A stretch of 64,000 nucleotides of DNA from Eledone cirrhosa (taxonomy: Eukaryota), in assembly GCA_964016885.1 (NCBI GenBank), contig CAXHJY010000349.1, forward strand, positions 1 through 64,000. The letters run 5' to 3'. Position numbers and translations under genes: made by a program. The notes beneath the pieces were generated by a model. It saw only the letters and a list, made by a program, of their open reading frames with translations. It was not told the DNA's origin and did no database searches. Shown here piece after piece: positions 1,348-63,722 of the stretch; position 1 is the first letter of the stretch; every line of letters begins with the position of its first letter.

Positions 1348-1376
<29 letters not shown>

Positions 1377-1382
<6 letters not shown>

Positions 1383-1907
1383 TAAATAAAAGTCAAATGA
1401 TTAAAATTTAGCTTCGCTTATTACTGCTATATATATTTCAGTGACAGCCATCTTTGGCTGTGACCTCTTCAGGCAGTTTGAATTAGTATGGTATAGACAA
1501 GTACATATGTTGTTTAGGTGTATGATATTGTCAATACTCTGATATGCCCAGTTCCTTGTTGGGTTGTTAATTCACTGGGGAACTGGAGTCATATGACTCC
1601 AGTTCCCCAGTGAATTAACAACCCAACAAGGAACTGGGCATATCAGAGTATTGACAATATCATACACCTAAACAACATATGTACTTGTCTATACCATACT
1701 AATTCAAACTGCCTGAAGAGGTCACAGCCAAAGATGGCTGTCACTGAAATATATATAGCAGTAATAAGCGAAGCTAAATTTTAATCATTTGACTTTTATT
1801 TAACTTTATTTTACACTACTCCGGAGTAACCAAACCAACCTGCGCACTTCGTCGAGTGCTCCAGCCTGCATACTGAGGTGTTGGTATACAACCAACATAA
1901 ACTCAAT
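1377..1907. repeat. Fold-back palindrome of the family A pLTR (arms about 215 bp, centre 1592/1593) in (TA)n
   Basis: Perfect inverted repeat around GGAGTCATATGACTCC. Confidence 0.95.
1708..1762 (+). ncRNA. Minimal type I hammerhead ribozyme, family A
   Basis: ACTGC-CTGAAGA-GGTCACAGCC(AAAGAT)GGCTGTCACT-GAA-AT(ATAT)ATA-GCAGT: 5-bp stem I, palindromic loop III, AUA site. Other copies: 1423-1477(-), 11573-11627(-, core mutated), 11858-11912(+), 12234-12288(-), 16364-16418(-), 17010-17064(+), 60864-60918(+). Confidence 0.85.
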
Positions 1908-2059
1908 ATATATATATATATATATAGATGCAGCCTCGGCAGATGAATACTGCTTGATTATGGCTGACAACTGATGCAACCAAGTCACCATAGTAAAAAC
2001 CAATATATGGAACATTATATTATGTAGCATTCTTTCATTATTTTAATTTATATTATAAA

Positions 2060-7425: not shown

Positions 7426-11151
<3,726 letters not shown>

Positions 11152-11484: not shown

Positions 11485-12172
<688 letters not shown>

Positions 12173-13483
12173 TGCATATATATAAAATAAAGTTAAATAA
12201 AATTCAAATGATTAAAATTTAGCTTCGTTTATTACTGCTATATATATTTCAATGACAGCCATCTTTGGCTGTGACCTCTTCAGACAGTTTGAATTAGTAT
12301 GGTATAGACAAGTACATATGTTGTTTAGGTGTATGATATTGTCAATACTCTGATATGCCCAGTTCCTTGCTGGGTTGTTAATTCACTGGGGAACTGGAGT
12401 CATATGAATTCAAACAAACGAATTTTTGTGTCACAGGTCCCCTTCTCCTCTCATTGGTCAGTTATTAGTGTTGTCATTGCTGGAGTTAGCTTAAAAATTG
12501 ATAAAATGGTAGAAGGGACAAGGTGTTGAAGGAACAAAATATCAAAAAATGTGTCAAACTTCCCATTGTTCAGTTCTGAGAGCATTCCTCAGTCAGAAGT
12601 CTATAGAATTCTTTCTGGGGTGAGGCTCCCTGTAGTGTTTATGCCTGCTATTGTTCAGTACATTTGACCTCCACCATTATTTTGGTACTGTTGTTGTTGT
12701 AGTGGTCAGCTTATACCTTGCTGCTGCTAACAATTTAGAAGTATTCAGTTTGTGTTTTCTCTTCATCCCACCCGCCACCATCGTAGTGGTGGTGGCGGGG
12801 GGGGGGGGGGGGGGCTTCTTTCATGTATATGAAGAAATATAAGGCAATAAATGAAGAAAACAGAAGATAAATAAATAATATAATAAAATAAAATAATTAA
12901 TATAATTTGTGTAATTTGAAAATAAATAAATAAATAAAGAATAAAGAATAAAGAGTAAATGAGAGATTGGTGAAAAAGTAATGATAATGTATATGGAGAA
13001 GTGAGAAATAATGTAGGATAAAGTGTGTGTGTGTGTGTGTGCTATAACCAATCTCAAGGTCAGAATATGTTGGATAGATTGGTATGATACAAGATGTTAA
13101 GATGAGATATTCAATGTGTTTGTGTTATAATCTATCTCAACTTAAAATAAATATAAGGTTATACAGTGAAGAGGGCAGAAAACAAATAACAAATTAATAA
13201 AGAGAAATCAAGATTTAAGATTGGAACTTTAAAGTCAGAAATCTGGTAAATTAAAAGTGTTTGTGTTATAGATGTTGGCCAGATTATTATGGCTGTGTCC
13301 GATTCTATCTCTAGGCTATCATGGTGTCTGCTCCGCCTGGGTTGTTCCCTATGGCTTGAGGGGAGTTCACAACCTAGGGTGTTGTAATTGTCCATATAGC
13401 TTGAGGGAGGTCTGGCCGAGAGGTGTTTTCATGTTCTGTAGAAGTCCCTATAGCTTGAGGGGAGTTCACATCTTCTTGTGCTG

Positions 13484-16161
13484 CTACTGTCCATATATTT
13501 TCAGAAAGGTCCCGGCTCTAAGGTGTCTGCATGTCCCGAAGAAGTCGGTTCTGAGGTTTATCAGGCCGCTTCCACCTCTTAGTATCTCGAGGGTCTCGTT
13601 CAGGCATAGTTTGCATATGCAAGATCCCCCTTTATCGGGTGGTACTTTCCTGATTATGTACCAGGCCAGAGAGTATGGGGTCCTGTCCAGCTTAAGCTTC
13701 CAGATCAGGTCGGAGAGAGCTGTGCTTTTCCTTTTGGCCTCCTTCTTGAATGAATGGCGATGGTTGTACCAGCGGTCCTTAAAGCTCGTTGATGTGGCTC
13801 CTATGTAGAGGTGTTCGGAGTTGGGGGTTTTAACCCTACAACCGTACACTATGTTCTTCTTGAGACATTCATTACCAAGGGGGCATGATTCGGGGTTTCT
13901 ACAGTTGCAGAGGGTGGGCGGCCTCTGCGTGCTTAGATTAGGGTTCTCATTATGTGTTACATGTTGGTCTTCCCCCATGCTCGGTGGGGGTCCTTGGGTC
14001 TGTTTGTGTTTCTTGGGTGGGCTCTGGGTCCCCCCTTCCCTCCTTTCACATGGTTCTGCTGAGTGTTTGTATTGCCATCTTCTGGTTGTGTGTGGTTTTT
14101 AAGCCTACTTCTGTTGATGCTAGCTATGTGTTGGGCCAAATTTCTCGTGGTGGAATACGAAAGCTTCACAGTGTGTCTGTTGAAGATCCTGTGGTATCTG
14201 TGGTCCCTCGGGAAGCATTTGTCAAGTGCTCCAAAGAACAATCGGGCCAAGCTTTTCTTTAGGGCCGCTGAGTAGGGTGGGTTGTACCACGTGATTTGTC
14301 GGTGTCTCCTCCTATATGTGTGGGTTGGGGGCTTCGTGATTTGTTGGAGATTTGTTGGTTTGCTGGTGGTTTCCGCACTGTTGCTTCCCTTTTGGGCTCT
14401 ATACTTTTTGTTATCTTCACGGCCCGGATTTGTGGGGTGGTTGTTGTCTGCCCCGGGAGATCCATCGTGGGGTGGTCGCCCGTTTCCTCCCCCCCACGTG
14501 TCCTGCGGTTGGGGTTGTCCGTCCTGGGGTAGTTAGCATCACGCCTGAGACTGCTACTCATATTGTGCTCCATCTCGTGGTCAAGCGCACTAGTCTCCAC
14601 CGCCCGTGTGGTGGTGTCTGGTACATGGTGCCTATTTGATTTTGCTCTGCCTGTATTGTTAGGGTTCGCCCTCCCCCCTCTGGTAACGCGGTTGTGGGTG
14701 TCTGTTGGGCTATCCACCTCCCGGCTTTTCGGACTATATGTTATATTTTGTCCATGTGCCGCCTTCTTTAGAGCTGCGTTGTAATATTCCGCGTGGTTGT
14801 TGAATATTTCCTTACTTGCGGACAGGCTAGAGATCCTGTCCGAGACACTCTTCACCACTGCCTTGGTTATGGATCTAGGGTGGTTTGATTTGGCGTTAAC
14901 ATATACTAGTTTCTCGTTGGGCTTGTGGTAGGGGTAGTATTGCTCGGTGTTCAGGTTTAGGGTGGTGTCTAGGAAGTTAACTACCTTCCTATTTGGGTCT
15001 ATTTCTATGCTGAGCCCCTGGTTCTTAAAGAAATGGCGAATACGCCTCCTCATACCCTCCAACATATTGGTGCTGTGGTCATGTACTGTGAATAGAGCAT
15101 CGTCACGATATAATCCGCCGCCCAGGCAGGGGATTTCATCTTTTATCTGCTTCAGCAGGTAGAGCCCAACCAGGTCCGTTACCTGCGCTGAGTCGCTGGA
15201 GCCCATCGTGATGTCAAAGTTATTTGGCCAATCACTCCTGGTCCACAGGTCTCCATCGAAGCGGATTAAGGTCTTTCTTGCGGCGTGGATGATGCTCACC
15301 TCCTCTCGGGTTAGGTCCGTATTGGACATCGCTAAAAATAGGGCCTTATTAAGTACTATGGGTGAGATTGAGGAGTAGTAGCTTGCGATGTCCAGTTGTA
15401 TAAAGCTGGTCCTACTTTTCTCATGCAGTATTTTGAACCATTCTATTACTTCTCTCGTGCATGACCATTGCTGTAATTTGTTTTTTTTCCGAAGCTTGGG
15501 CAAAATCCTATCTAGTATTCTTTTACTGACGATCCCTAGGTCAGATCTGGAGGGGGGCTATTAGTCTGACAGGGAGGTCGGACTCAAAGTTTGACTTGTG
15601 GTCTTTAAGGGTAATCCGCGGCTCCCTTGGTTGGTATGGGGCCGTCCTGTCCTCTATGCCGATTCTGGATATAATCCTGTAAGCTGTGGCATTGATCTCA
15701 TCCAGGGTAAATCCAGGTGTTTTTTTGTAGCACTTCCTCAGTTCCCTGAGGATTAGCTTATTGTACAGTTCAGTGTTCATGTTGTAGAGGTTGTTTGTTT
15801 TGTCAGCATGGACAAGTATTCCAGTTGTCCCTTTAAGTACTGTAATCCGGTTTCTCAGGTGTCTGAGGTACTCCTGACTTCTGGTTGGGTTTCCGGAGAA
15901 TTTGAGGTTGGATATGATGTTAATCATCTCGTTTTCAAACTCCTCCATTAGTCTGTTATGGGGGGGATTCCTCCTTGATCGAAAAAGGTACTCCATGTTT
16001 TCTGTGTTTGTAGTTTTCTACGTTCCTCTTTCGAAGTGGAACGCCTTCCATCTCATCCTACGGATGAGGGAGTCCGTACTCTTGATGAGATCACTGGTGT
16101 ATTCTCGTTTATCAGGTAGGGGGATGTTCTTCAGTGACGCTAAGGTTGCCAGTTTATCCAT
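13484..16161 (-). pseudogene. Near full-length Penelope-like element ORF (RT + C-terminal GIY-YIG endonuclease), disrupted
   Basis: ATG at 16161 (MDKLATLASLKNIPLP...IRRMRWKAFHF), in-frame TAG at 16018-16020, then ORFs 15541-15996, 14259-15503, 13957-14250 and 13484-13978 joined by frameshifts (one in the G-run near 15555). Motifs: ADKTNNLY, ITLKDHK, QLDIASYYSSI, FDITMGSSDSA, GGGLYRDD, VNFLDTTLNL, YVNAKSNHP, CNCRNPESCPLGNECL, VYGC...YIGAT, CKLCLNE, CRH. Confidence 0.93.
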
Positions 16162-16363
16162 AGTGACTTAGGTCCGCTACTGTTTGAAGCGCTCAACCCG
16201 TGTGGGAGCTAGATAGATTTTGAGTTTATGTTGGTTGTATACCAACACCTCAGTATGCAGGCTGGAGCACTCGACGAAGTGCGCAGGTTGGTTTGGTTAC
16301 TCCGGAGTAGTGTAAAATAAAGTTAAATAAAAGTCAAATGATTAAAATTTAGCTTCGTTTATT

Positions 16364-16418
16364 ACTGCTATATATATTTCAGTGACAGCCATCTTTGGCT
16401 GTGACCTCTTCAGGCAGT
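16364..16418 (-). ncRNA. Family A HHR in the pLTR upstream of the PLE ORF
   Basis: Same motif as 1708-1762; predicted cleavage at 16369/16368, 207 nt upstream of the ATG at 16161. Confidence 0.85.
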
Positions 16419-17212
16419 TTGAATTAGTATGGTATAGACAAGTACATATGTTGTTTAGGTGTATGATATTGTCAATACTCTGATATGCCCAGTTCCCCCC
16501 CGCCACCACCACTACGATGGTGGCGGGTGGGATGAAGAGAAAACACAAACTGAATACTTCTAAATTGTTAGCAGCAGCAAGGTATAAGCTGACCACTACA
16601 ACAACAACAGTACCAAAATAATGGTGGAGGTCAAATGTACTGAACAATAGCAGGCATAAACACTACAGGGAGCCTCACCCCAGAAAGAATTCTATAGACT
16701 TCTGACTGAGGAATGCTCTCAGAACTGAACAATGGGAAGTTTGACACATTCTTTGATATTTTGTTCCTTCAACACCTTGTCCCTTCTACCATTTTATCAA
16801 TTTTTAAGCTAACTCCAGCAATGACAACACTAATAACTGACCAATGAGAGGAGAAGGGGACCTGTGACACAAAAATTCGTTTGTTTGAATTCATATGACT
16901 CCAGTTCCCCAGTGAATTAACAACCCAGCAAGGAACTGGGCATATCAGAGTATTGACAATATCATACACCTAAACAACATATGTACTTGTCTATACCATA
17001 CTAATTCAAACTGCCTGAAGAGGTCACAGCCAAAGATGGCTGTCACTGAAATATATATAGCAGTAATAAACGAAGCTAAATTTTAATCATTTGACTTTTA
17101 TTTAACTTTATTTTACACTACTCCGGAGTAACCAAACCAACCTGCGCACTTCGTCGAGTGCTCCAGCCTGCATACTGAGGTGTTGGTATACAACCAACAT
17201 AAACTCAAAATC

Positions 17213-17333
<121 letters not shown>

Positions 17334-17578: not shown

Positions 17579-17800
17579 AGACGTAAAATAAGAAAATTAT
17601 AAAATTAACTTACTTACTAAAATATTTTAGTAAGTAAGTTAATTTTATAATTTTCTTATTTTACGTCTCTCATATTATTGTTCTGCAACCCCATGCATTG
17701 AACCACAAAGTTACTAAGACAAAACCTATATATTTGCTAGCATTGATATGCATCTGTATGTATATATATGTTACTAGATATTAATTCTTTATATATATAT

Positions 17801-18285
17801 TAATTTCGTTTCGTTATTTGTTTTTATCGTCTCCGTTGAACCGGTACGTACTCACGCTCTATGCAAATTAGTCAACCCACTACTAATTTTCATAGAAAAG
17901 CATATAACGATATGTGCTTTTACGATTCTCTAGAAAGGCCGGAAGATAGGTAAATATTGCTGATGAGATGTAACAACATCGAAACTAGTCCAATATTCCT
18001 TGTCTGGCTTTCTGAAGAATAGAGGAAAGGTGTTTCCTCAAAAACCAGTATGACTCTAAAAACCGGTTTGTCTGTATGTTTACATACAGAATAGCTGGAC
18101 ACTCACAGTAAAGTGACCAGTGAAAAACTCGGTACATCTACATATGTACACGTGTGTGTATTCATATGCATACTAGTATTTCAGTATACATATGTGGATG
18201 TACATTTTTAACTTAATTGTTTAAGCGTCAGTCATACAAAAGTGAGTTACAAACGAAACGAAATTTAATTTCGTTTCGTTATTTG

Positions 18286-18290: not shown

Positions 18291-20767
<2,477 letters not shown>

Positions 20768-20772
<5 letters not shown>

Positions 20773-21893
20773 GTTCTCTGGTTACAATCAGAGATAAAAT
20801 GAGAGTATATAGAGGAGCCAGAACCAAATGTGAAAAAATGGTAAATAATGATACAAATGGCACCTGCCCCTTGTATAGGAGCAAAGTTTGGAATAGAATC
20901 GAAAGAACTAGGAATAAGATTAATAGAATAAACTCATGGCATGATAGCAATAAATACCAGCGTGTAATGTTCATCGATACAACCCCAAGAGGTGAATTAG
21001 CTTACAAATTTAGAAGGGCCCTAGATAAACATAAACTCAATATTAAGATAGTAGAAAGACCAGGTACCTCCATAAAAACACTTATTAGCAATAAATACCC
21101 TTTTCAAAGACCTCCCTGTATAGATAAGAAATGTATAATCTGTAAATTAAGCCCCCATATTAACTATAAAACTAGAAATGTAGTATATAGCATAAGATGT
21201 ACTGAAGGACAATGTAGAGATAAGAATATAGTGTACATAGGTGAGACAGTTCGTAGTATAGGGGAACGGATATATGAACACTGGCGAGAGCTTCAAGATA
21301 GTAAAGGATCATCTTTACTCCACCAAAATGCTAAAATAGAACATAAGGGTAAAGTAGAGAACATAGAAATAAAAAATAGAATCTACACTCAGAAAAGACG
21401 CAATGTTTAGACAAATCACAGAGGCAATAAACATAAATGAACTCCAACCAAAATTAAATAGAAAACATGAATGGAACAGCAACATCACAATTTACAATTA
21501 AGGACAAACTGAAAACACACACACACATAGAACAAACAACCAACCAGTAACATGTAAATAAACAAATAAATAAACGAATATAAACACACACAGACACCCG
21601 GATGTAACACATGCGCAAACTAAGCACACAAGACACACACAGAAACAAGATGGCGTAGGACAGAACAAAGGAGAGGCACAAAAACAAAGAAAAGAATCCC
21701 CAGTCACTGAAGAGGTCACAGAATGTGTGACGAAATAACTTTGACAATATATGAACAATCATCTGGTTGTGGAACCAACCAACCAACCGGAAATTTATAA
21801 ATTCCTAAATTTATAAATTTAATTTATAATAAATTGAAGTGAAAGCAACTGGTGCGTGTGTTTCTTATTGGCAACATGACCCTCCCAAAGTAT

Positions 21894-36206: not shown

Positions 36207-36510
36207 AGGCGTATGGTTAAGTGGTTAGAGCGTCGGGCTTGCACTCGTGAGGTTCTGAGTTCGATTTTCAAACCGGGTGATGCAAGACACTTTATTTCAC
36301 TTTGCTCTAAAATGAGTTGTGATGCCACTGATGCCAAGCTGTGTTGGCATAAACTTTACCCCTCGACATCGGTGGCGTGAAAATGGGAGACTGGTATGAG
36401 CGGGCGATTGCTGGTCGTCTACAAGCAACCTTGCCTGGACGTTGTGTCGCGGAGAGCTTTCTAGATGCCAATCCCATGGTCATTCGTGATCGAAAGGTTC
36501 TTTTTTACTA
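36207..36510 (+). mobile_element. Second tRNA-derived SINE family (also 51395-51610 +; degenerate at about 31245-31500 + and 30940-31100 -)
   Basis: TGGTTAAGTGGTTAGAGCG...GAGTTCGATT A/B boxes followed by GCAAGACACTTTATTTCAC. Confidence 0.75.
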
Positions 36511-36574
36511 TATATATATATATATATTATTCATTCCTCTCTTCCCCACCTCAAAGGTGGTCTTTATCGGGTTG

Positions 36575-38375
36575 ATTGTCTATTGATATCTAACAATCTT
36601 AGCAATTCTAATATAGAGAAAAACAAAAAACAAATTAGAAAATTCCTAAAGGACTATTACAACCTTAATATCACCTTTGAAAACACCTCAAAAGTAGCTA
36701 ACTTCCTTGACGTTACCTTAGACCTCTCTACGAATATTTATCAACCTTACCACAAACCCAACCAGAATCTACACTATGTACATTCACGCTCTAACCACCC
36801 TGGCTCTACACTAAAAAACTTAGTATATAACATATCTCTTAGACTTTCTAAATTATCTTCCAATGAGGATATATTTTATAAAAATGCACCCTTCTACAAC
36901 GAGGCCCTAACTAGAAGTGGATATAAAGAAACAATTTCATATATCCTCAACACTACTATGGACCATACTACAAAACCTAGCAAAAACTACAAACACCAAA
37001 AAATACCATCGAAACAAATGCCTAATGGGGTCATTCCCATCACACCAAACAACCGAAAAACCACAACAACTATTACTACACGATCTATGACCAATGTTAA
37101 CAACTCACATATGACTACCAAACATTCAACCTCTCATAATATACCCAATAATAATACCAAATACAACCACTGCAATTTACCAAAATCCACAAATACAAAT
37201 ACTAACCATAGGAACTCTTCTAGAACACAGCACATTAATATAAGTGAGAATAAGAACTTAACTAAAAACCGCAAAAGAAACATAACATGGTACAACGCAC
37301 CCTTCAACCTGCAAACTATTGGACAAATCCCCAAAACTTTCTTCGAAATTCTACATAAACATTTTCCACCAAACCACAGATACCACCAAATATTTAACAG
37401 GTATACTGTTAAATTCTCATACTCTACATCAAACAATCTCCAACAGAAAATAAGCAACTACAACATTTATAAATTTAAAAATAATATGACCACACCACCA
37501 CAACATAATTTAAATAAGACTGCACCTTTAAAAGGACAAATAATACAATTCTTCAACCTGGAAAACACAACCACCCAAATCACCAACACAAAAACAACAT
37601 AACACAAAATCACAATACAACCCCAGCACTAAATCACCCACAAAGCAGCACTCATTCTCTCTCTAACATTAATTACAATAAGAATAGCTCCAGGATTAAT
37701 GAGAATTATGTAGGTACCTCCAACAACCATCTTACGTATGGTTGTAATTGCAGAAATAGAAGCGTTTGCCCCTTAAATGGCAACTGTTTGATTAATAATG
37801 TAATATATAAATGCACTGTGTCTACTACTGACTCCAACAAATCGTATATAGGATCTACATCGAACACATTTAAGAAAAGATATTACGCACACTCCAGTAG
37901 CTTTAATAATACTAAACTAACTAACACGACATCTTTAGCTGAAGCAGTAAATAACTATAAAAAGAAAGGAATAGATTTCAAGCTATCGTGGGATATCATT
38001 CTGCAAAGAACTCCATATCTTGGTAACAGGAGAGAATGCAGATTATGTTCCGGAGAGATCTTGGAAATTATTAAATCTAAGGACGATTTATTGAATAAAA
38101 TACAAGAACTGATTAGAGCTTGTAATCACCGTATACGAAAAACATTTAAGTACTATAAACCTAATTAAACATTCTAAATAGCAGCTCACTATAGCTCTAT
38201 GTGACGTACCATTTTGTTAGTATCCCCTTCTCCTAATTATACGCCTTCCTGTTAATTTTTTAACCTTTACATTTTTTAGCTTCCATAGATTCATGCGTTA
38301 CGGACTAAGGGCATCAAGGTACATAACCACCTGTAATTGCATGGGTATACATGTATCTATGTATGTATGGTAAGA

Positions 38376-43679: not shown

Positions 43680-45922
43680 TATAAATTAATAAAAACAATG
43701 AATAAAAATAAAGAAACAGTTCCTTATATTAAAAATTAATCATTTTACGATCGTTTCTAGGATATATATGTGTGTGTTGGTATGTATATCATATAGATCT
43801 ATGTAAAAGTTTTACAAACTATCAGAGGGAATATACATACCTACACATATATATGCTGTCTTCAGAAATAATGATATTTGTTTATTGAAAAAAAAAAAAA
43901 AAAAAATTTTATATAATAGGTCTGTTTTGAATTGACCAATAGAAAAGTGGTAAGTGGTCAAGTTGATAGAATAATAATTCCTAATAATCATACTAAAACA
44001 CCTAAATCAGTGAATCTAACTAAAAATATGTGTAATAAAATCACTAATACTAATTCTCTTAGTAAACAACAGGATACATCATATAATAATAAAAAACAAC
44101 ATCGAAACCGTAATAGACGAGTTATTTGGTATAATGCTCCATTTAATCTACAAATTAAAGATAATATACCTAAAAAATGTTTTACTATCCTAGAGAAAAA
44201 CTTCCCGACAAACCATAAATACCATCAAATTTTAAATAGATCAACGGTCAAATTCTCCTACTCAACAACCAAAAATATAAATGTAAAAAAAAAACGATGA
44301 ATATACCACCAACACATCAAACTAACCATAATACTAAAATAAACCACAGCAAACTACCATCTCATTCATATACAACAAGTCGAGAAAATTCCACACCTAA
44401 TTTGACTAACTCCCCTGATATAACATTCACGAAAGGCTGTAACTGTAGAAACAAAGCAAATTGCCCATTAAAAGGAAATTGCCTTATAAATAACATAGTA
44501 TATAAATGTAAAATTAGCACTAAGGACTCAACTTATTCATATATAGGAGCTACTTCTAACCAATTTAAAGTAAGATTTAATACCCACAAACACAGTTTTA
44601 AAAATGCCGCATTAGCTAATACAACATCCTTAGCTGAAATAATTAATAATTATAGAAAAAAGAATATCGATTATAACTTGACCTGGAGTGTGCGCAAAAG
44701 GGCTACCCCTTATCAAAATAATAGATATGAATGTAGATTATGTTCCCAGGAACGTTTTGAAATAATGAAATCTAAGGATATCCTATTAAATAAGCGACAA
44801 GAATTAATTATATCATGCAATCATAGAATTAGAAAAACTTTCAGATATTATAAACCTAATTAATATACACTTATATTTTACAAATTATTATAATTATTTT
44901 TTTAAAATTAGTTAACCTATAATTAATATTCTACTACTAAGAACTAGATAATTTTATTTCCCTTTTACAGCTATCTTTTCCTAAAATTTATACCAATAAG
45001 TATACATATACACTATTTTAATTTCCTGTTATGAATCTAAATTCCCTATAATCTATATAAGTTTGTTATTTCTCAAAAATACATTTACCCCCACCCCCCA
45101 CCCCTCACAAAAAAATTTTCCTTCGTTTTTAACAACATTTTAACAACATTTTAATAACATCTAACTCTTATTTATCATATCTATATGAATTAATATAATT
45201 TTATCCCTATAAATATACCTATCAATTAAGTTAATTTAATTTCTTTTTATAGATCTATATTCCTTATGTTTTAAATAAGATTGATATTTTTCACTAACAC
45301 ATTTATAGTAAAATTTTATTCTCCTTAGATTTTAACATTACCATTATTCTTTAATAACATCAAATTTTTGTGTACCTTTCCCCGGCTTGACCTATTTTCA
45401 TCCCCAAAGTAATCTTTTCATTCAAAATACTTTTTCCATTCAAAACTGATGTCTGCATTCCTCTACCCCTAAATTAAATTTCTACTACTACTATTCTATC
45501 AACTTGACCACTTACCACTTTTCTATTGGTCAATTCAAAACCTGTTCCCAAACAGACCTATTATATTAAATCTTTGTTGGTTTTTTTCAATAAACAAATA
45601 TCATTATTTCTGAAGACAGCATATATATGTGTAGGTATGTATATTCCCTCTGATAGTTTGTAAAACTTTTACATAGATCTATATGATATACATACCAACA
45701 CACACATATATATCCTAGAAACGATCGTAAAATGATTAATTTTTTAATATAAGGAACAGTTTCTTTGTTTTTATTCATTGTTTTTATTAATTTATCTTGA
45801 CTCTGTTTTCCTGTTTTTCATCCAAAAAAATTTTGAATACATCATCTCTTTTCATGATATTTGGATTACATTGAGTTCTTCATACGGATTGGACACTACC
45901 GTATATTTTGGTAGATTTATCT

Positions 45923-50377: not shown

Positions 50378-50740
50378 TAATAAATGGTTTCAACAGAACT
50401 TTGATTCATGTGATTTCTATATAACTGCTCTGTAGAACAACTGATGTTATTACAATCAGCTATTTATCTTACTGGTAATAAGGTAGTAATAAATTACTGT
50501 CTTTCACTGTTTAGGGTTTCAAATATATATAACTATAAAAAGTTTTAGTATATAAATAACCATAAATAGTATCCTTCATACTATATTTATATATATATAA
50601 ATATATATATGCAAAAGTTCTATTTAAATTGTTGGGATACAACAAGCAAATATTTTTATAACTGATATAAAGCACTCGACAAGTATTGGGAGTAAATATA
50701 CGATAATAACAAATGGAAACTATATTTATAAAACCATATT

Positions 50741-50805
50741 TATTTTATTATACATATTTCAAGGATACCATGTTAAATTATGGTATACCTTCATCAGACA
50801 AAATA
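50741..50805 (-). ncRNA. Type I HHR (mirror copy at 50958-51022 +)
   Basis: TATTTTGT-CTGATGA-AAGGTATACC...GGTATCCTT-GAA-AT(ATGT)ATA-ATAAAATA, inside a palindrome centred at about 50880. Confidence 0.78.
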
Positions 50806-51058
50806 CAATATATACCAGTTTTATAAATAAACATTGACGTACCTTTCAAAATGCAAGCGTTACTTTTGGAAGACATCAGGATATGATGTCTTCCAAAAGT
50901 AACGGTTGCATTTTGAAAGGGTACGTCAATGTTTATTTATAAAACTGGTATATATTGTATTTTGTCTGATGAAAGCATACCATAATTTAACATCGTATCC
51001 TTGAAATATGTATAATAAAATAAATATGGTTTTATAAATATAGTTTCCATTTGTTAAT

Positions 51059-51153
<95 letters not shown>

Positions 51154-52308: not shown

Positions 52309-53080
52309 CCAGTAAGACCCCGACAGCTGAGCTCAAGCCGTTTCGACGGCTAATTCTGGACTAAATGAAAATTTATCCTGGTATTTAAATAGCCGATCTT
52401 CTCAAGGGGTAATTCCATATATGGTCAAAGTGATTGTCAAAAATCAGTAGTAATTCTGTGGTTGCAAATTAGTAGGGGAGATGGTGGCTAAACCTGCCAG
52501 TAGGAGAAAGAGGGGAGGGGGTGGAGTAGACCCAATCAAGCGTTGGTAGTGCCAGCTACAGCTGGGCATGAGGTCAAAGAACATACAGGGGAGGGGGAGG
52601 GGGAGGAAGTCGGAACCTTAGTAGGGGAGATGGTGGCTAAACCTGCCAGTAGGAGAAAGAGGGGTGGGGGTGGAGTAGACCCAATCAAGCGTTGGTAGTG
52701 CCAGCTACAGCTGGGCATGAGGTCAAAGAAGATACAGGGGAGGGGGAGGGGGAGGAAGTCGGAACGGTAGGTTCCGACTTCCTCCTCCTCCCCCTCCCCT
52801 GTATCTTCTTTGACCTCATGCCCAGCTGTAGCTGGCACTACCAACGCTTGATTGGGTCTACTCCACCCCCACCCCTCTTTCTCCTACTGGCAGGTTTAGC
52901 CACCATCTCCCCTACTAATTTGCAACCACAGAATTACTACTGATTTTTGACAATCACTTTGACCATATATGGAATTACCCCCTGAGAAGATCGGCTATTT
53001 AAATACCAGGATAAATTTTCATTTAGTCCAGAATTAGCCGTCGAAACGGCTTGAGCTCAGCTGTCGGGGTCTTACTGGTT

Positions 53081-54310: not shown

Positions 54311-56530
54311 TTAATTGTAAGTCGTGATGTTGCTGTTCCACTCATATTTTCTATTTAATTTTGGTTGTAATTCTTTTATGTTTATTGCCTCTGTGATTTG
54401 TCTAAACATTGCGTCTTTTCTGTGTGTAGATTCTATTTTTATTTCTATGTTCTCTAATTTACCCTTGTGTTCTATTTTACCATGTAGGTAGCGTACAGAT
54501 GATTCTTTATTATCTTGAAGGTCTCGCCAGTGTTCATTTATCCGTTCCCCTACACTACGAGCTGTCTCACCTATGTACACTATATTTTTGTCTCTACATT
54601 GTCCTTCTGTACATCTTATGCTATACACTACATTTCTAGTTTTACAGTTAATATGGGGGTTTATTTTACAGGATATACATTTCTTATCTATACATGAGGG
54701 TCTTTGAAAAGGGTATGTCTTGCTAATAAGTGTTTTTACGGAGGTACCTGGTCTTTCTACTATCTTAATATTGAGTTCATGTTTATCTAGGGCCCTTCTA
54801 AATGTGTAAGCTAATTCACCTCTAGGGGTTGTATCGATGAACATTACACTCTGGTATTTATTGCTATCATACCATGAGTTTATTCTATTAGCCTTGTTCC
54901 TAGTTCTTTCTATTCTATTCCAAAATTTGCTCCTATACAAGGGGCAGGTCCCATTTATGTCATTATTTACTATCTTTTCCCATTTGGTTCTGGTTCCTCT
55001 ATACACTCTGATTTTATCTCTCTGATTGTAGCCTGAGAACTGCATACGGTGGATGAAGTGTTATATGTGTCTCTCTAGTTCTTCGGGGTTGCACATGCGG
55101 GTCACGTTTCTCATCACCCGTACCAAATCCGCAATCAGTATGTTAATTTTGGTATGGTCCGAAACGGCGGAGTTTCGGTGGATCAGATGTTTGGAAGTCA
55201 TGGGTTTGGCATAATGGGAATGGAGGATTGGTTTTTTGTTATTAATGGTATCTAACCAGAGCTCTGTGTCTAGTACAGGTAATCGATGGTTGGTGTGTTT
55301 ACTTGGGTAGTCTATAGTAACTCTAATGCTCTGGTGGATGGAGTTAGCTATTTCCTGGAGGCTTTCCATTGTGTTTTTCTCTAGTTCCTGACTGTTCTCT
55401 AGTGTGGGTGTCTTAACTACGATGTTTATATCATCAACGTAGCGGGAGTACATTATCAGGGTTAAGGGGTCTTCTAATTGTTCTTTAAGTTTAAGATTAA
55501 GTCTACTGTCCGACCATAACATTAATAAGTTAGCTATGTCGCCTGCAATGCTAACACCAATGGCTGCTCCTTCCTCTTGGGCATATGTTTTTCCATTAAA
55601 TTTGAACATATGTTCCTTAAGGGTTAGCTTTATGTTGGCCCCTACCGCATGTGCAATTATTTTCTTCAGTTCATCGTGGTTTTCGGGTGTCCGTATGGCT
55701 CTGGTCCACCCGTTGCATCTATCTGTGTGGGTTTTCTTGGCCATTGAGGTAATGGTAGGTGGTCTGCCTCTTGCTGGTCTTGTAAGGCACAGGTTGCTAA
55801 GGTCATATGTGTCTAGGTAATTATTACTATAGGTAAGTTTAAGTAGGAGTCCCAGCTCACTGGTATCAATCCCACGGAACTCAACATTGCTCTCACTGAT
55901 CATTTCTACGCATTTCTCCATAGCAAAATCCACGTCAATAGATGGATACAGGGACACAACATCCATACTACCTATTATGCAGTTTGTTAGGTCTCTAGAT
56001 CGGTTACTCACGCCGATTCTGCTGAGGAGGTCGTCCGTGCTGTCACATACATCTGGGGACATTTCAATGATGGGGCGTATGATCAGGGAGAGGAAGTAGG
56101 ACAGTCTGTAGTTACTAGCAATGTTAGCTCCACAGACTGGCCGTGTTGGTGGTCCCGCGAGAGGGTCACTGCCCGTTTTATGGTCTTTTCTAAGCCCATA
56201 CAACGCCGGCACGTCATTATTCCAGGCCTGGAAGTTGTTGGCAGTCCTTTTGTTGGGCTGCATTATATTCGTCCACATCACCATATGGGCATTGAGGGCT
56301 TTTTCTCTATCCTCATGCTCTTGTGGTGTTACCTCTCTTGTGTTAGTGATGTGGGGTTGCATTGCCTGGATGTAGTTTGGCAGGCTGTCAACCGACATTC
56401 TGCCAGACTTGTCTGTTGGAAAGCATGCTATCTCTCCATTACGCGAGCGCTGCATGAGCTTACGCAAGCCATTTGCATATTTTTCTCCCAGCTGCTGGGC
56501 CTCCATTCTATTATGCTTCTTGCTATACTG
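54311..56530 (-). pseudogene. Neptune-like PLE RT + GIY-YIG, split by a single in-frame TAA (55061-55063)
   Basis: PTDKSG, LYGLRKDHK, TRPVCG, SMDVVSLYPSI, QEEGAAIG, YSRYVDD, LPVLD, then CIDKKCISC...CKTRNVVYSIRC...YIGETARS..ERINEH..EAINI...LN. ORFs 55061-56506 and 54311-55045 are in the same frame. Clade assignment is inference. Confidence 0.92.
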
Positions 56531-56539
56531 TTCTATAAT

Positions 56540-57130
56540 ATTTCTAAGTTCGGATCCCGAGTTTACACCAACACCATCAACACCGATGTAAGAAGATTAC
56601 AACTCACCAAAAAACAAGCAGATAGGCTAAAACGAACACTAATTCTAAACATAAAAAAGAAGATCTATAGAGAATTAAGTCATCAAGAAAAACATAAGCG
56701 TAACCTAATACAAGAAATAGCTAGGATCACCACACGAAGAGAGAAACTAATATTTATAAGCCTTATACGTCCTGAAGAACAGTACATTACTCAAGAATGT
56801 GATAAGCACTTTAACAAGAAACTAAAGTGGCTTAAGCAGATAAACCTAAATCAGGATACTGTAGAGAATACCAATAGATATCCCGACAAAATTGACGGTA
56901 TAAATATGGCCGACACCTCATTAACAGATGAGTTCAACAACAACACAAATATATACGGCAACACGATAATAGATGACGATGAGTTATCTGTATTACGTCT
57001 ACCACCGAAATTTGCGACATTCAAGAAGGTAAATATGATTAGTTGTCTGTCATAAATAGAAAAAATCATTTACAAAACTACGCTGGAGCCTCAAAAACAA
57101 AAACAAAAACAAAAGTAACAATATACGCAG
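56540..57130 (+). pseudogene. Inverted N-terminal PLE ORF fragment (probable 5' inversion of the Neptune-like element)
   Basis: IDDDELSVLRLPPKFATF...*IEKSFTKLRWS resembles the PLE pre-RT region; it abuts the 5' end of the minus-strand RT in opposite orientation. Confidence 0.6.
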
Positions 57131-57139
57131 ACAACAGAC

Positions 57140-59097
57140 AGGATAAATTTGGATTTAAAACCTATAATAACCCCCCGTGGAACCCAGCATTGCTACCCTT
57201 CGAAAATGATGTCTTGGAACTCATTCGGAGTATCAAATTTCGGAATAGCAGCAATTCCTTCCAGCAAGACCTGAAGAATAGAATTCGTTCTATTAAGGAT
57301 TCTAATGCCGTGGACGTCCATTCCGACAAAACTGGCAACCTATATCAAGTGGAGCGCAGTACTTATCATCAACTACTACATAATGCTGTAACTAAGGATT
57401 ACCGTAAAACTAATCGGTGCGTCATCAATGAAATCAACGATGCTGGGTTTAAAATCACATCTGATCTCAACATCCTGGACCGGACCGAACCTCTGGACCC
57501 TATTTCTCCCCACTTTACCCTGAAGGATCACAAATCCAATTTTCCGAACAACCCCTCTATTCGGCATATTAACCCTACGAAGTCCGATTTAGGTAGACTT
57601 AGTAAAACGATTCTTGATAGAATTATACCTGAAATTAGAAGTTTGGCCCCTCTTGCACTGTGGAACAATTCTTTCGCGGTGATTGATTGGTTCAACGGCA
57701 TATGTAACAAGGAACATTGCCGTTTTATCCAATTCGACATCAACAATTACTACTCCTCCATCACTTCACCACTTCTCCTTAGAGCTATCAATTTCGCTAA
57801 AACACTCACAGTGGTTAAGGATTTTGAAGTTGATGGCATCCTCAATGCCCGAAAGTCGGTGATTAATTTCAACGACTCTATTTGGATTAAAAAATCCAAT
57901 AGTACCCTATTCGACGTGAGTATAGGCGCCAGTGATTCTGCGGAGGTTTCTGATCTTATTGGCCTTTTCCTTCTTTTCTCTATCAAGGACGAATTCCCCA
58001 ACGCGGGCGGTGGTTTGTACCGTGACGATGGTCTTATGACCATGACTAAGCGCGGACCTCGTGCTTGCGACAGGTTCAGAAAAGAACTCACAGCCTTCTT
58101 TAAAGGCTTCAACCTCTCTATACAGGTTGAGGCCAATCTCTCGGTCGTTAATTACCTCGACGTTACCCTCAATTTATTGAATGGGTTGTATTACCCGTAT
58201 AGAAAGCCGAATGATACGCTTAATTACATAAGTAAGCATTCCAACCATCCTGCCAGCATAACCAAGAACCTGGTACGAAACGTTTCGTTGAGGCTTTCCC
58301 GTCTTTCCACCAACGACCATTCCACTTATTACAATGAAGCTCTTGCTCGAAGTGGATTTGTCGATAAGGTAGCATATACAGAGTACGATAATAGACCTAA
58401 AAGTAATAGACCCCATCGCATTTGTTGGTATAACCCACCATATAATATGGAGGTGGCCACACCATTAGCTAAGATCTTTCTTTCCCTTATTACGAAGCAT
58501 TTTCCCCCTACACATAAATATAGTAAAATTTTTAATAGAAATACTATTAAAATTTCTTACTCTACGACTCCTAACCTTGCACATAACATCACAGCTTCAA
58601 ATTTAGCTAAACTACCTAGCCGTAGGAACACGTGCAACCCTGTAGTTAGTACCAACTGTAATTGTAAGAATCGGGTTGATTGCCCCCTATACGGGAAATG
58701 CCTCTCTAGCAACATTGTCTACAAATGTAAGGTTGTAACACCCACGTCCCGTATGGCTTACATAGGGTTAACCGCCAATAGTTTCAAGCAGCGTCTTTAC
58801 ATGCATACCCATTCTTTTCGTTACCCTCTAAGAAGGAATATGACGTCACTTTCAGTTTATATCTGGAGTCTAAAAGACAACCACACCCAATATAAGTTAC
58901 ACTGGGAGATCCTAGCTAGGGCTAGATCGTATAACGGAAATTAAAGACCATGTGACCTCTGCGCCTCTGAGGCCCTGGAAATACTCTACGCCACAGACCA
59001 CATCTTAAACAAAAAATCTGAGGCAATTTCGGCTTGAAAACATAAATTGCACAAAACTTTCCTGTATTACAGCCCCACGTTATACCCTAACGGATAG
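57140..59097 (+). pseudogene. PLE RT + GIY-YIG ORF (CxCx5Cx5C linker type), 5' truncated, two late stops
   Basis: Part of ORF 57043-58944: SDKTGNLY, FTLKDHK, QFDINNYYSSI, GGGLYRDDG, NYLDVTLNL, WYNPPY, CNCKNRVDCPLYGKCL, VYKC..AYIGLT. The frame continues past TAA 58942 (RPCDLCASE...LNKKSE..SA*KH) to TAG 59097. Confidence 0.92.
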
Positions 59098-60538: not shown

Positions 60539-60539
60539 T

Positions 60540-60963
60540 TTTGAGTATATGTTGGCTGTATACCAACACCTCAGTATGCAGGCTGGAGCACACGACGAAG
60601 TGCGCAGGTTGGTTTGGTTACTCCGGAGTAATGTAAAATAAAGTTAAATAAAAAATCAAATGTTTTAAATTTAGCTTCGTTTATTACTGCTATATATATT
60701 TCAGTGACAGCCATCAGTGATAGACTGTGGTATAGGAAATGGAATCATATGATTCCAGTTCCTCAGTGAAATAACAACCCAACAAGGAACTCGGCATATC
60801 AGAGTATTGACAAAATGATACACCTCAACAACATATGTACTTGTCTATACCACACTAATTCGGACTGTCTGAAGAGGTCACAGACAAAGATGGTTGTCAC
60901 TGAAATATATATAGCAGTAATAAACGAAGTTAAATTTTAAAAATTTGACTTTTTATTTAACTT

Positions 60964-60966
<3 letters not shown>
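60540..60966. repeat. Diverged family A pLTR, inverted pair
   Basis: 60540-60713 is reverse-oriented and about 60740-60966 forward-oriented, both matching family A. Confidence 0.85.
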
Positions 60967-62816: not shown

Positions 62817-63722
62817 TAAAAACAAATAACGAAACGAAATTAAATTTCGTTTCGCCTCTAACTCACTTTTGTATGACTGACGCTTAAACAATTAAATTAA
62901 AGTGTACATCTACATATGTATACGGAAGTATTAGTATGCATATAAATACACACATGTATACATATGTACATGTACTGAGTTTTTCACTAGACACTTTACA
63001 GTGAGTGTCAGCTAGTCTGTATGTAACCACACAGACGGACCGGGTTTTAGAGTCATACGAGTTTTCAAGGAAACACATTTCCTCTATTCTCCAGAGAGCC
63101 AGACAGGAATATTGGACTAGTTTCGATGTTATTACATCTCATAAGCAATATTTACCCATCTTCCGGCTTCTCTGGAGAATTGTAAAAGCGCATATCGTTA
63201 TATGCTTTTTCTATGAAAATTAGTAGTGGGTAGACTAATTTGCATAGAACGTGAGTCATTGTACGCACCGGTTCAGCGGAAACGATAAAAACAAATAACG
63301 AAACGAAATTAAATTTCGTTTCGCTTCTAACTCACTTTTGTATGACTGACGCTTAAACAATTAAGTTAAAGTGTACATCTACATATGTATACGGAAGTAT
63401 TAGTATGCATATAAATACACACATGTATACATATGTACATGTACTGAGTTTTTCACTAGACACTTTACAGTGAGTGTCAGCTAGTCTGTATGTAACCACA
63501 CAGACGGACCGGGTTTTAGAGTCATACGAGTTTTCAAGGAAACACATTTCCTCTATTCTCCAGAGAGCCAGACAGGAATATTGGACTAGTTTCGATGTTA
63601 TTACATTTCATCAGCAATATTTACCCATCTTCCGGCTTCTCTGGAGAATTGTAAAAGCACATATCGTTATATGCTTTTTCTATGAAAATTAGTAGTGGGT
63701 AGACTAATTTGCATAGAACGGA
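62817..63722 (-). mobile_element. ORF-less tandem repeat, 469-bp unit, one HHR per unit (retrozyme-like)
   Basis: 62821 matches 63290 and 63108 matches 63577 (offset 469). A diverged monomer-plus copy lies at 17801-18290(+) with an about 25-bp terminal direct repeat. Confidence 0.8.

Follow-up and report, generated by a model that had tools for sequence, protein, structure and literature searches.

We analysed a 64,000-nt stretch of DNA from Eledone cirrhosa (assembly GCA_964016885.1, contig CAXHJY010000349.1, positions 1 to 64,000; hereafter the window), in which one insertion of a Penelope-like element (PLE) of the Hydra clade, now broken, lies in a (TA)n tract. The arms of this and related insertions end beyond the predicted cut of the hammerhead ribozyme, and each of the two classes of end lies just before one of two short hairpins in the leader. 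Comparison of the sequences makes it probable, though well short of certain, that these twin hairpins set two start sites for complementary DNA (cDNA) and that the template was circular or a full tandem. Both the clade and the arrangement of this broken copy were already known, and the circle model was published in 2014; an earlier note on this DNA restates that model on a broken copy, and the possibly new part is the rule that ties the ends to the twin hairpins. The rule bears on start-site choice, on the one-sided tail with its inverted arm and on the purpose of the hammerheads in PLEs. A short, covarying and duplicated hairpin that predicts both end classes is a defined cis signal for mutation in vitro, and it offers a simple boundary marker for the annotation of Hydra-clade elements.

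Copy ends and the twin leader hairpins

The features concerned are given below, with signed offsets relative to the predicted cut.

16313..16496, minus strand: 5' pseudo-long terminal repeat (pseudo-LTR), directly repeated at 12183-12366 (blastn)
12183..12366, minus strand: 3' pseudo-LTR, stopping 56 nt beyond the cut, in (TA)n, 4 nt short of the hairpin 1 position
16495..17218, plus strand: inverted, 5'-truncated arm of 724 bp, spanning -564 to about +156
16364..16418, minus strand: 5' minimal type I hammerhead, predicted cut 16369/16368 (descriptor scan, fold, alignment)
12234..12288, minus strand: 3' hammerhead, predicted cut 12239/12238 (descriptor scan, fold, alignment)
16162..16368, minus strand: leader of 207 nt, without ATG
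16267..16308, minus strand: hairpin 1, at +61, with a lower stem of 4 bp, a bulge of 2 nt, an upper stem of 6 bp and an AC-rich loop
16189..16209, minus strand: hairpin 2, at +160, the canonical short form
11522..12060: head-to-head pair with ends at +56 and +154, whose arms meet at -168 in an 8-bp palindrome
1376..1916: head-to-head pair with ends at +52 and about +150 and the same -168 junction
60539..60966: older head-to-head pair with ends at +151 and +52, 92-95% identical to the main copy

Four insertions of this family were found in the window by blastn, all of them head-to-head pairs in (TA)n. In all four, one arm ends at +52/56 and the other at about +150 to +156 past the cut (BLAST ends +151 to +159); none of the eight arm ends lies at the predicted ribozyme cut, and (TA)n adjoins every one of them, in one case via a short A run. 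Three points absent from the earlier note concern the main insertion: its direct repeat (16496-16313 versus 12366-12183) is only 184 bp long with 3 mismatches, its boundary lies 56 nt beyond the 3' cut and not at the cut itself, and its inverted arm holds a third, antisense hammerhead (core 17015). This arm stops in (TA)n directly before the hairpin 2 position, and the insertion is as long as the whole unit plus about 183 nt. Given that both arm ends lie beyond the cut, the template was continuous across the ribozyme site. In the pair at 11522..12060 the hammerhead core of the minus arm is mutated, and in the pair at 1376..1916 two variants are common to both arms.

A loose (TA)n end at 16213 or 16211 was present in all four DNA runs examined, of 12 listed (288 reads in run X10), and a loose end at 16313 in one of the four, among the rows shown. 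In run X1 the summed contig depth was about 565,000-623,000 over the ribozyme and leader versus 800-2,600 over the 5' part of the open reading frame (ORF), which suggests a large excess of terminal stubs, summed depth not being a copy number. A joint in the DNA runs that goes back 4130 nt was rejected as evidence for a circle, since it is expected from the genomic 3' repeat.

Two further observations concern copy ends. An arm 5' end at -168 was found in three of the four insertions (12407 and the equivalents 11739-11746, 1589-1596 and 60745); the site, an 8-bp palindrome, sits at the foot of a hairpin of -17.6 kcal/mol and may serve for pausing, for annealing or as the start of a transcript. 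A second hammerhead family at 50590-51070 also forms a head-to-head pair (cores at 50797, minus strand, and 50966, plus strand), with a short arm to about +50, a long arm to about +139 and a hairpin at 50693.

In each end class the arms stop 3-10 nt short of one of the leader hairpins, which start at 16308 (+61) and 16209 (+160). Hairpin 1 is a divergent long form that folds in isolation at -7.3 kcal/mol. Among 77 related metagenome loci, which are short contigs labelled with L-numbers, 36 whose ORF reached 640 aa or more and was preceded by 89 nt or more made up a leader set, and the hairpin motif was found in 28 of these 36 leaders, with two copies, 55-79 nt apart, in 21. A stricter pattern gave 28 leaders with the motif and 17 with two copies, at a density of 7.0 per kb in leaders versus 0.08 in ORFs. 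Over the 44 distinct instances the upper-stem pairing exceeded that of shuffles only with a 2-nt bulge (2.07 versus 0.52 pairs; reached in 0 of 1000 shuffles), the first upper pair being C-G in 30, U-A in 12 and unpaired in 2. An alignment of 42 hairpins with MAFFT failed to anchor the 5' strand, and the anchored count was used.

The set of copy ends comprised 24 rows from which two internal-repeat rows, two motif-only cross-matches and one duplicate were removed, leaving 19 distinct ends. Fifteen of them fall within -8..+6 of a hairpin start (a window picked post hoc), seven at the first hairpin and eight at the second. The probability of this coincidence is about 1e-5 under a generous uniform null (p = 0.3), and about 1e-4 when it is counted strictly by family (13/17).

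Within the window the strict hairpin motif occurs 10 times versus 0.2 in shuffles, and the first pair is A-U in 9 of the 10 versus G-C in 42 of the 44 at related loci. All eight strict instances outside the main leader are followed by (TA)n at 62-97 nt from the motif start, as would be expected of long arms that end before a second hairpin. The published Hydra-1_Ajap consensus (PMC8557442) displays two such hairpins; the words "hairpin" and "stem-loop" are absent from the supplement of that paper and "hairpin" from its main text. No description of the twin hairpin was found in the open-access literature searched, which took in PMC8557442 with its supplement and the main text of PMC11167929.

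Hairpins at 2891, 46077, 49079 and 52296 share the A-U first pair, each is followed by (TA)n at a distance of 62-88 nt, and no intact hammerhead core was found within 260 nt upstream of any of the four; they are probably ends of other Hydra-type families. In two related leaders (L013 and L061) (TA)n lies directly ahead of the last hairpin, which may reflect an insertion into the leader or an assembly join.

The 4130-nt unit and its clade

The unit is completed by two further features.

13484..16161, minus strand: Hydra-type ORF for a reverse transcriptase (RT) with C-terminal GIY-YIG, of full extent but broken, with a low-complexity insert at about 14715-14320
12367..13483, minus strand: long 3' untranslated region (UTR) containing degenerate repeats of short length, a tract rich in pyrimidines, a poly-C run and a hairpin

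The descriptor scan bore out the geometry described in the earlier note, namely two minus-strand hammerheads whose predicted cuts lie 4130 nt apart and a distance of 207 nt from the first cut to the ATG at 16161. Both are type I with an AUA triplet, C3 lies at 16413 and 12283, and the last base before the predicted cut is 16369 in the 5' motif and 12239 in the 3' motif. In total 10 hammerhead motifs were found in the window with this descriptor, compared with a mean of 0.03 and a maximum of 1 in 100 local shuffles. In 16300-16480 no hammerhead family of Rfam matched at E values up to 10, so the call for this family is based on the descriptor and the predicted fold. A hammerhead-like motif was also present in 28 of the 77 related loci (mean of 0.2 in shuffles), and in three of them the same ribozyme flanks an intact ORF of about 700 aa on both sides, a fourth having two different ones; the twin-hammerhead arrangement is thus ordinary. 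Rfam found nothing in six related loci up to an E value of 0.05.

The features of minimal type I hammerheads of PLEs (CUGANGA and GAAA cores, an NUH triplet, helices I and II and a short palindromic helix III) are all present; helix I has 5 bp and helix II 10 bp in both ribozymes. The G10.1-C11.1 pair is not, since helix II is closed by G-U in 8/8 aligned family copies, and this lowers the expectation of efficient cleavage. In the alignment the 3' ribozyme has two private C-to-U changes that produce wobbles in helices I and II, and folded in isolation as drawn it reaches about -12 kcal/mol compared with -15.7 kcal/mol for the 5' motif, that is, about 4 kcal/mol weaker. Many hundreds of reads from restriction-site-associated DNA sequencing match 16346-16425 over the ribozyme only and then continue into heterogeneous flanks (agreement 0.34-0.40), which suggests that across subfamilies the ribozyme is conserved more than its flanks.

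According to the earlier note the two ribozymes could pair and excise a unit from a read-through transcript. A dimer with swapped palindromic helix III appears energetically possible (predicted -33.1 kcal/mol versus -27.4 for two monomers, 5.7 lower), although the dimer folded without constraints takes a different structure at -36.7 kcal/mol. At this locus the folding predictions speak against excision from read-through RNA because the 5' ribozyme would pair with its antisense copy upstream: with the antisense arm in the RNA its helices I and II have a predicted probability of 0.0. For RNA starting within the pseudo-LTR, helix I of the 5' ribozyme has a probability of 0.12-0.16, and helix I of the 3' ribozyme in its local context one of at most 0.02, these being equilibrium predictions without protein. 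The Poseidon ribozyme cleaved only with protein present (PMC11167929).

The earlier note also took the unit to contain the whole PLE ORF and to be the autonomous parent of the scattered pieces of this family. Translation and tblastn with 8 of 120 homologues showed that a protein of 700-800 aa is covered in full extent over 16161-13484, and blastn linked the scattered pieces to the termini of this element. As assembled, however, this copy cannot serve as an autonomous parent, as codon 48 is an in-frame TAG (16020-16018) and the frame switches three times, once near 15553, once somewhere from 14532 to about 14320 and once near 13985, so that the ORF is in four pieces. The source would be an intact element at another locus. 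Two of the frame switches sit in homopolymer runs, where an assembly error is possible. One-letter indels set reads from other copies apart at 13985 (81/81 reads of X10, and likewise X1, X4 and X5) and at 15552 (X1, X4 and 2/4 reads of X10), and copies free of the lesions at these two positions therefore exist; neither the TAG nor the middle frame switch appears in the 40 read differences displayed (239 were not) or in the 12 indels displayed (6 were not). Selenocysteine recoding of the stop was considered and rejected, the stop being TAG and not TGA at a cysteine.

The element belongs to the Hydra clade, as judged from its motifs and full-length homology. This clade is characterised by RWK, DKT, a CxCX5C linker, a C-terminal GIY-YIG domain, CxxC and CxH motifs, hammerheads and (TA)n targets (PMC8557442). 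RWK instead of GxKF/Y is present as RRMRWKAF in the first ORF piece, and DKT instead of DKG as ADKTNN (DK[TS] in 107/120 homologues). The linker reads CNCRNPESC and precedes the C-terminal GIY-YIG (IVY..YIG), while CKLC..E and N..CRH correspond to CxxC and CxH around the conserved E and N. The Pfam match to GIY-YIG (E 7e-4, 20.3 bits) is under the 22.6 cut-off. A single uninterrupted ORF is lacking, and the copy is thus a decayed or mis-assembled member of the clade. The Hydra-1_Obim protein in the supplement of PMC8557442 shares, by eye, the same RRMRWKAF and DKTNNLY stretches.

Hydra-clade units are generally under 3 kb (PMC8557442) whereas the present one is 4.1 kb, with 1245 nt from stop to cut and the low-complexity insert. 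The part of the 3' UTR at 13057-13470 is multi-copy in reads, and at 12750-12830 a poly-C run, within which the 5' end of the inverted arm lies, is followed by a stable hairpin (z -5.0). The stability of the leader is unremarkable (z -1.2).

Start sites, template and competing explanations

In the mechanism that we propose, the family RNA would carry, from 5' to 3', the hammerhead, hairpin 1, hairpin 2 and the ORF, an order seen in the DNA. As the copy ends suggest, the RT-endonuclease, probably a dimer, would bind both hairpins as RNA, both strands of the TA target would be nicked and two cDNAs would be primed, one just 5' of each hairpin. Joining of the cDNAs head-to-head at microhomologies or a palindrome would give the observed pattern of one short-ended and one long-ended arm, and the tail would be the difference in length between the arms, about 100 nt. 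As both cDNAs would read back through the ribozyme site, the template must have been intact there. Most events would stop early and leave terminal stubs, and the main insertion would have run on past the whole unit.

This end rule supplies an explicit reason for a circular or full-tandem template. Because copies end before the hairpins, a new copy would lack hairpin 2, or both hairpins, behind the ORF, and read-through of such a copy would yield nothing but terminal stubs, made from the leader at its 5' end; the template of a full-length copy must have a leader after the 3' UTR, as a circle or a full tandem would. The template of the main insertion had this order, with the 3' UTR followed by the ribozyme and both hairpins and with the whole unit upstream. 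We slightly and tentatively favour a cut and re-ligated 4130-nt circle over a full tandem; the ribozyme cuts would then mark the seam of the circle and not the insertion ends. At the level of the family the copy ends, which call for a template uninterrupted at the cut, lend the circle model indirect support. Such a circle is feasible, since host ligases close retrozyme RNA that hammerheads have cut into circles in vitro (PMC7229834). If true, a hairpin-docked dimeric RT would account for both the tail and the head-to-head arms; the fuller proposal, in which the duplicated hairpin docks a dimeric RT at two priming sites and the clade propagates via a ribozyme-cut, re-ligated circle, appears rather doubtful taken as a whole.

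Several observations weigh against the hairpin rule or the circle. Hairpin 1 has a competing fold once 5 more nt are included, and the stability of the +56..+155 region is not unusual (z -1.8). The lower stem is nearly invariant and G-U pairs are few, which is compatible with folding as RNA or as DNA. Four of the 19 copy ends do not fit (-27, -62, -83 and +32), one of them (L024) lying inside the hammerhead near its cut, the -8..+6 limits were chosen after the fact, some loci in the set belong to the same family, and TA microhomology blurs BLAST ends. For the circle in particular, minimal hammerheads cleave poorly (PMC4209133), Naiads spread without canonical hammerheads (PMC8557442), and in PMC11167929 mutating the ribozyme left insertion in vitro unaffected, while among the RNA reads from Anolis none ended at the cut. 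The low predicted probabilities of helix I in local context (0.12-0.16 for the 5' and <=0.02 for the 3' ribozyme) point the same way.

The template might instead have been an uncleaved linear transcript of head-to-tail tandems, with the hairpins setting the starts, the ribozymes silent or regulatory and the tandems renewed by insertion into the AT-rich pseudo-LTR of another copy. From the sequences this is a serious possibility, and in PMC11167929 cleavage is dispensable, RNA left unprocessed serves as the main substrate and the endonuclease cuts its own pseudo-LTR. One related locus (L011) takes the form, as assembled, of two or more repeated units, but this contig and L022, whose length is the unit plus 127, may be assembly-graph loops. 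All three differences of the 3' repeat belong to a single copy, which would be expected of ribozymes derived from different parts of the template, yet three changes on one of three copies are not significant (1 in 9 for any copy). Intact tandems would also have to be regenerated continually, and hammerhead cores are kept in 28 of the 77 short related contigs. It is less likely, and in our judgement unlikely, that the hairpins act in DNA, where the endonuclease would recognise them, in cDNA or in the genome, and resolve a longer-than-unit intermediate just before them, and the ends would be cut sites and not RT starts. The few G-U pairs are in line with this, PMC8557442 attributes the tail to endonuclease-mediated resolution, and the tail is needed for endonuclease recognition in D. 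virilis, according to a summary in PMC11167929. However, the tail borders are RT start sites in the one PLE that has been reconstituted (PMC11167929), and covariation with a fixed bulge needs a single-stranded form.

The remaining two explanations carry still less weight. That the head-to-head arms arose by self-priming on an antisense template, with end classes that do not come from twin priming, is distinctly improbable. Self-priming was proposed for Adineta vaga given palindromes at inverted junctions (PMC3846280), and two junctions here fall on the 8-bp palindrome at the foot of a stable hairpin; neither the main junction nor the one at 60.5 kb, however, is a fold-back there, and the pairing of a short and a long arm in 4/4 cases, with each end before a sense-strand hairpin, would be left unexplained. 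Least probable, and very unlikely in our view, is the version in the earlier note, in which the present locus would itself be the autonomous parent, with two ribozymes that cut a translatable unit without a cap out of read-through RNA. It is compatible with the hammerhead geometry, the AUG-free leader of 207 nt and the possible dimer fold, as well as with self-cleavage promoting cap-independent translation in fungal virus UTRs and reporters (PMC13725137), and the two frame switches at homopolymer runs are perhaps assembly errors. Against it stand the stop and the three frame switches, the predicted sequestration of the 5' ribozyme by the antisense arm and the weakening of the 3' ribozyme; the one-letter indels at two switches show other copies free of these lesions, not intactness here.

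Other elements in the window and comparison with known systems

A third family of hammerheads, whose GUC site is more canonical, occurs at 17800-18200 and 62907-63720; it has an Rfam HH9 match under the cut-off at 17942-18013, is repeated twice about 470 bp apart near 63 kb and could be retrozyme-like. Four more decayed Hydra-type ORF regions were found by tblastn with the same homologues (9647-10946, 36421-38165, 44037-44863 and 57124-59094), and the ORF list shows, by eye, pieces of a different PLE-like type at 54311-57055 and 20703-21410, one of which stands back to back with a Hydra-type element. A near-perfect inverted repeat of 227 bp at 52655-52881 is GC-rich relative to the window, and a general repeat search of the window was dominated by microsatellites.

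The epsilon element of hepatitis B virus is a bulged stem-loop that is bound by the reverse transcriptase and sets the start of synthesis. Its likeness to the twin hairpins is an analogy only: epsilon is an unrelated element and the protein primer is templated from its bulge, whereas the ends here lie just 5' of the stem and priming would occur on target DNA.

Two assignments of the element itself were rejected. It is not a Naiad or Chlamys PLE, as its endonuclease is C-terminal and not N-terminal and hammerheads are present. Nor is it a non-LTR retrozyme, which consists of non-coding tandem units of about 170-400 nt with a hammerhead in each, since the unit has 4130 nt and is coding and the short pieces are head-to-head and not tandem. 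Retrozymes have been linked to PLE pseudo-LTRs (bioRxiv 10.64898/2026.07.22.740005).

Poseidon of Anolis (PMC11167929), in which the tail is bounded by two internal sites of RT start, both strands are primed and the protein is predicted to dimerise, resembles the scheme proposed for the present element in that both start sites lie downstream of the hammerhead, the target is AT-rich and both strands are primed. It differs in belonging to another clade and in having start sites within the ORF, 30-40 nt apart in an AC-rich stem loop; the main text of that paper, in the parts covered, contains no conserved duplicated hairpin for Poseidon. The PLEs of PMC4209133 likewise have minimal type I hammerheads flanking the ORF, with a long helix II and a palindromic helix III, although a conserved G-C closes helix II where the element here has G-U next to the core. 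A dimer, excision, circularisation and a circular-template model were already proposed there in 2014, and copy ends are not related to the cut site in the parts covered. The Penelope elements of Adineta vaga (PMC3846280) share with the insertion described here two direct and one inverted 5' pseudo-LTR, a one-sided tail, palindromes at inverted junctions, low-complexity ORF inserts and a long spacer before the 3' repeat; their tail is 31 nt compared with about 100 nt here, and a target duplication, unlike in Adineta vaga, is not readable in the (TA)n tract.

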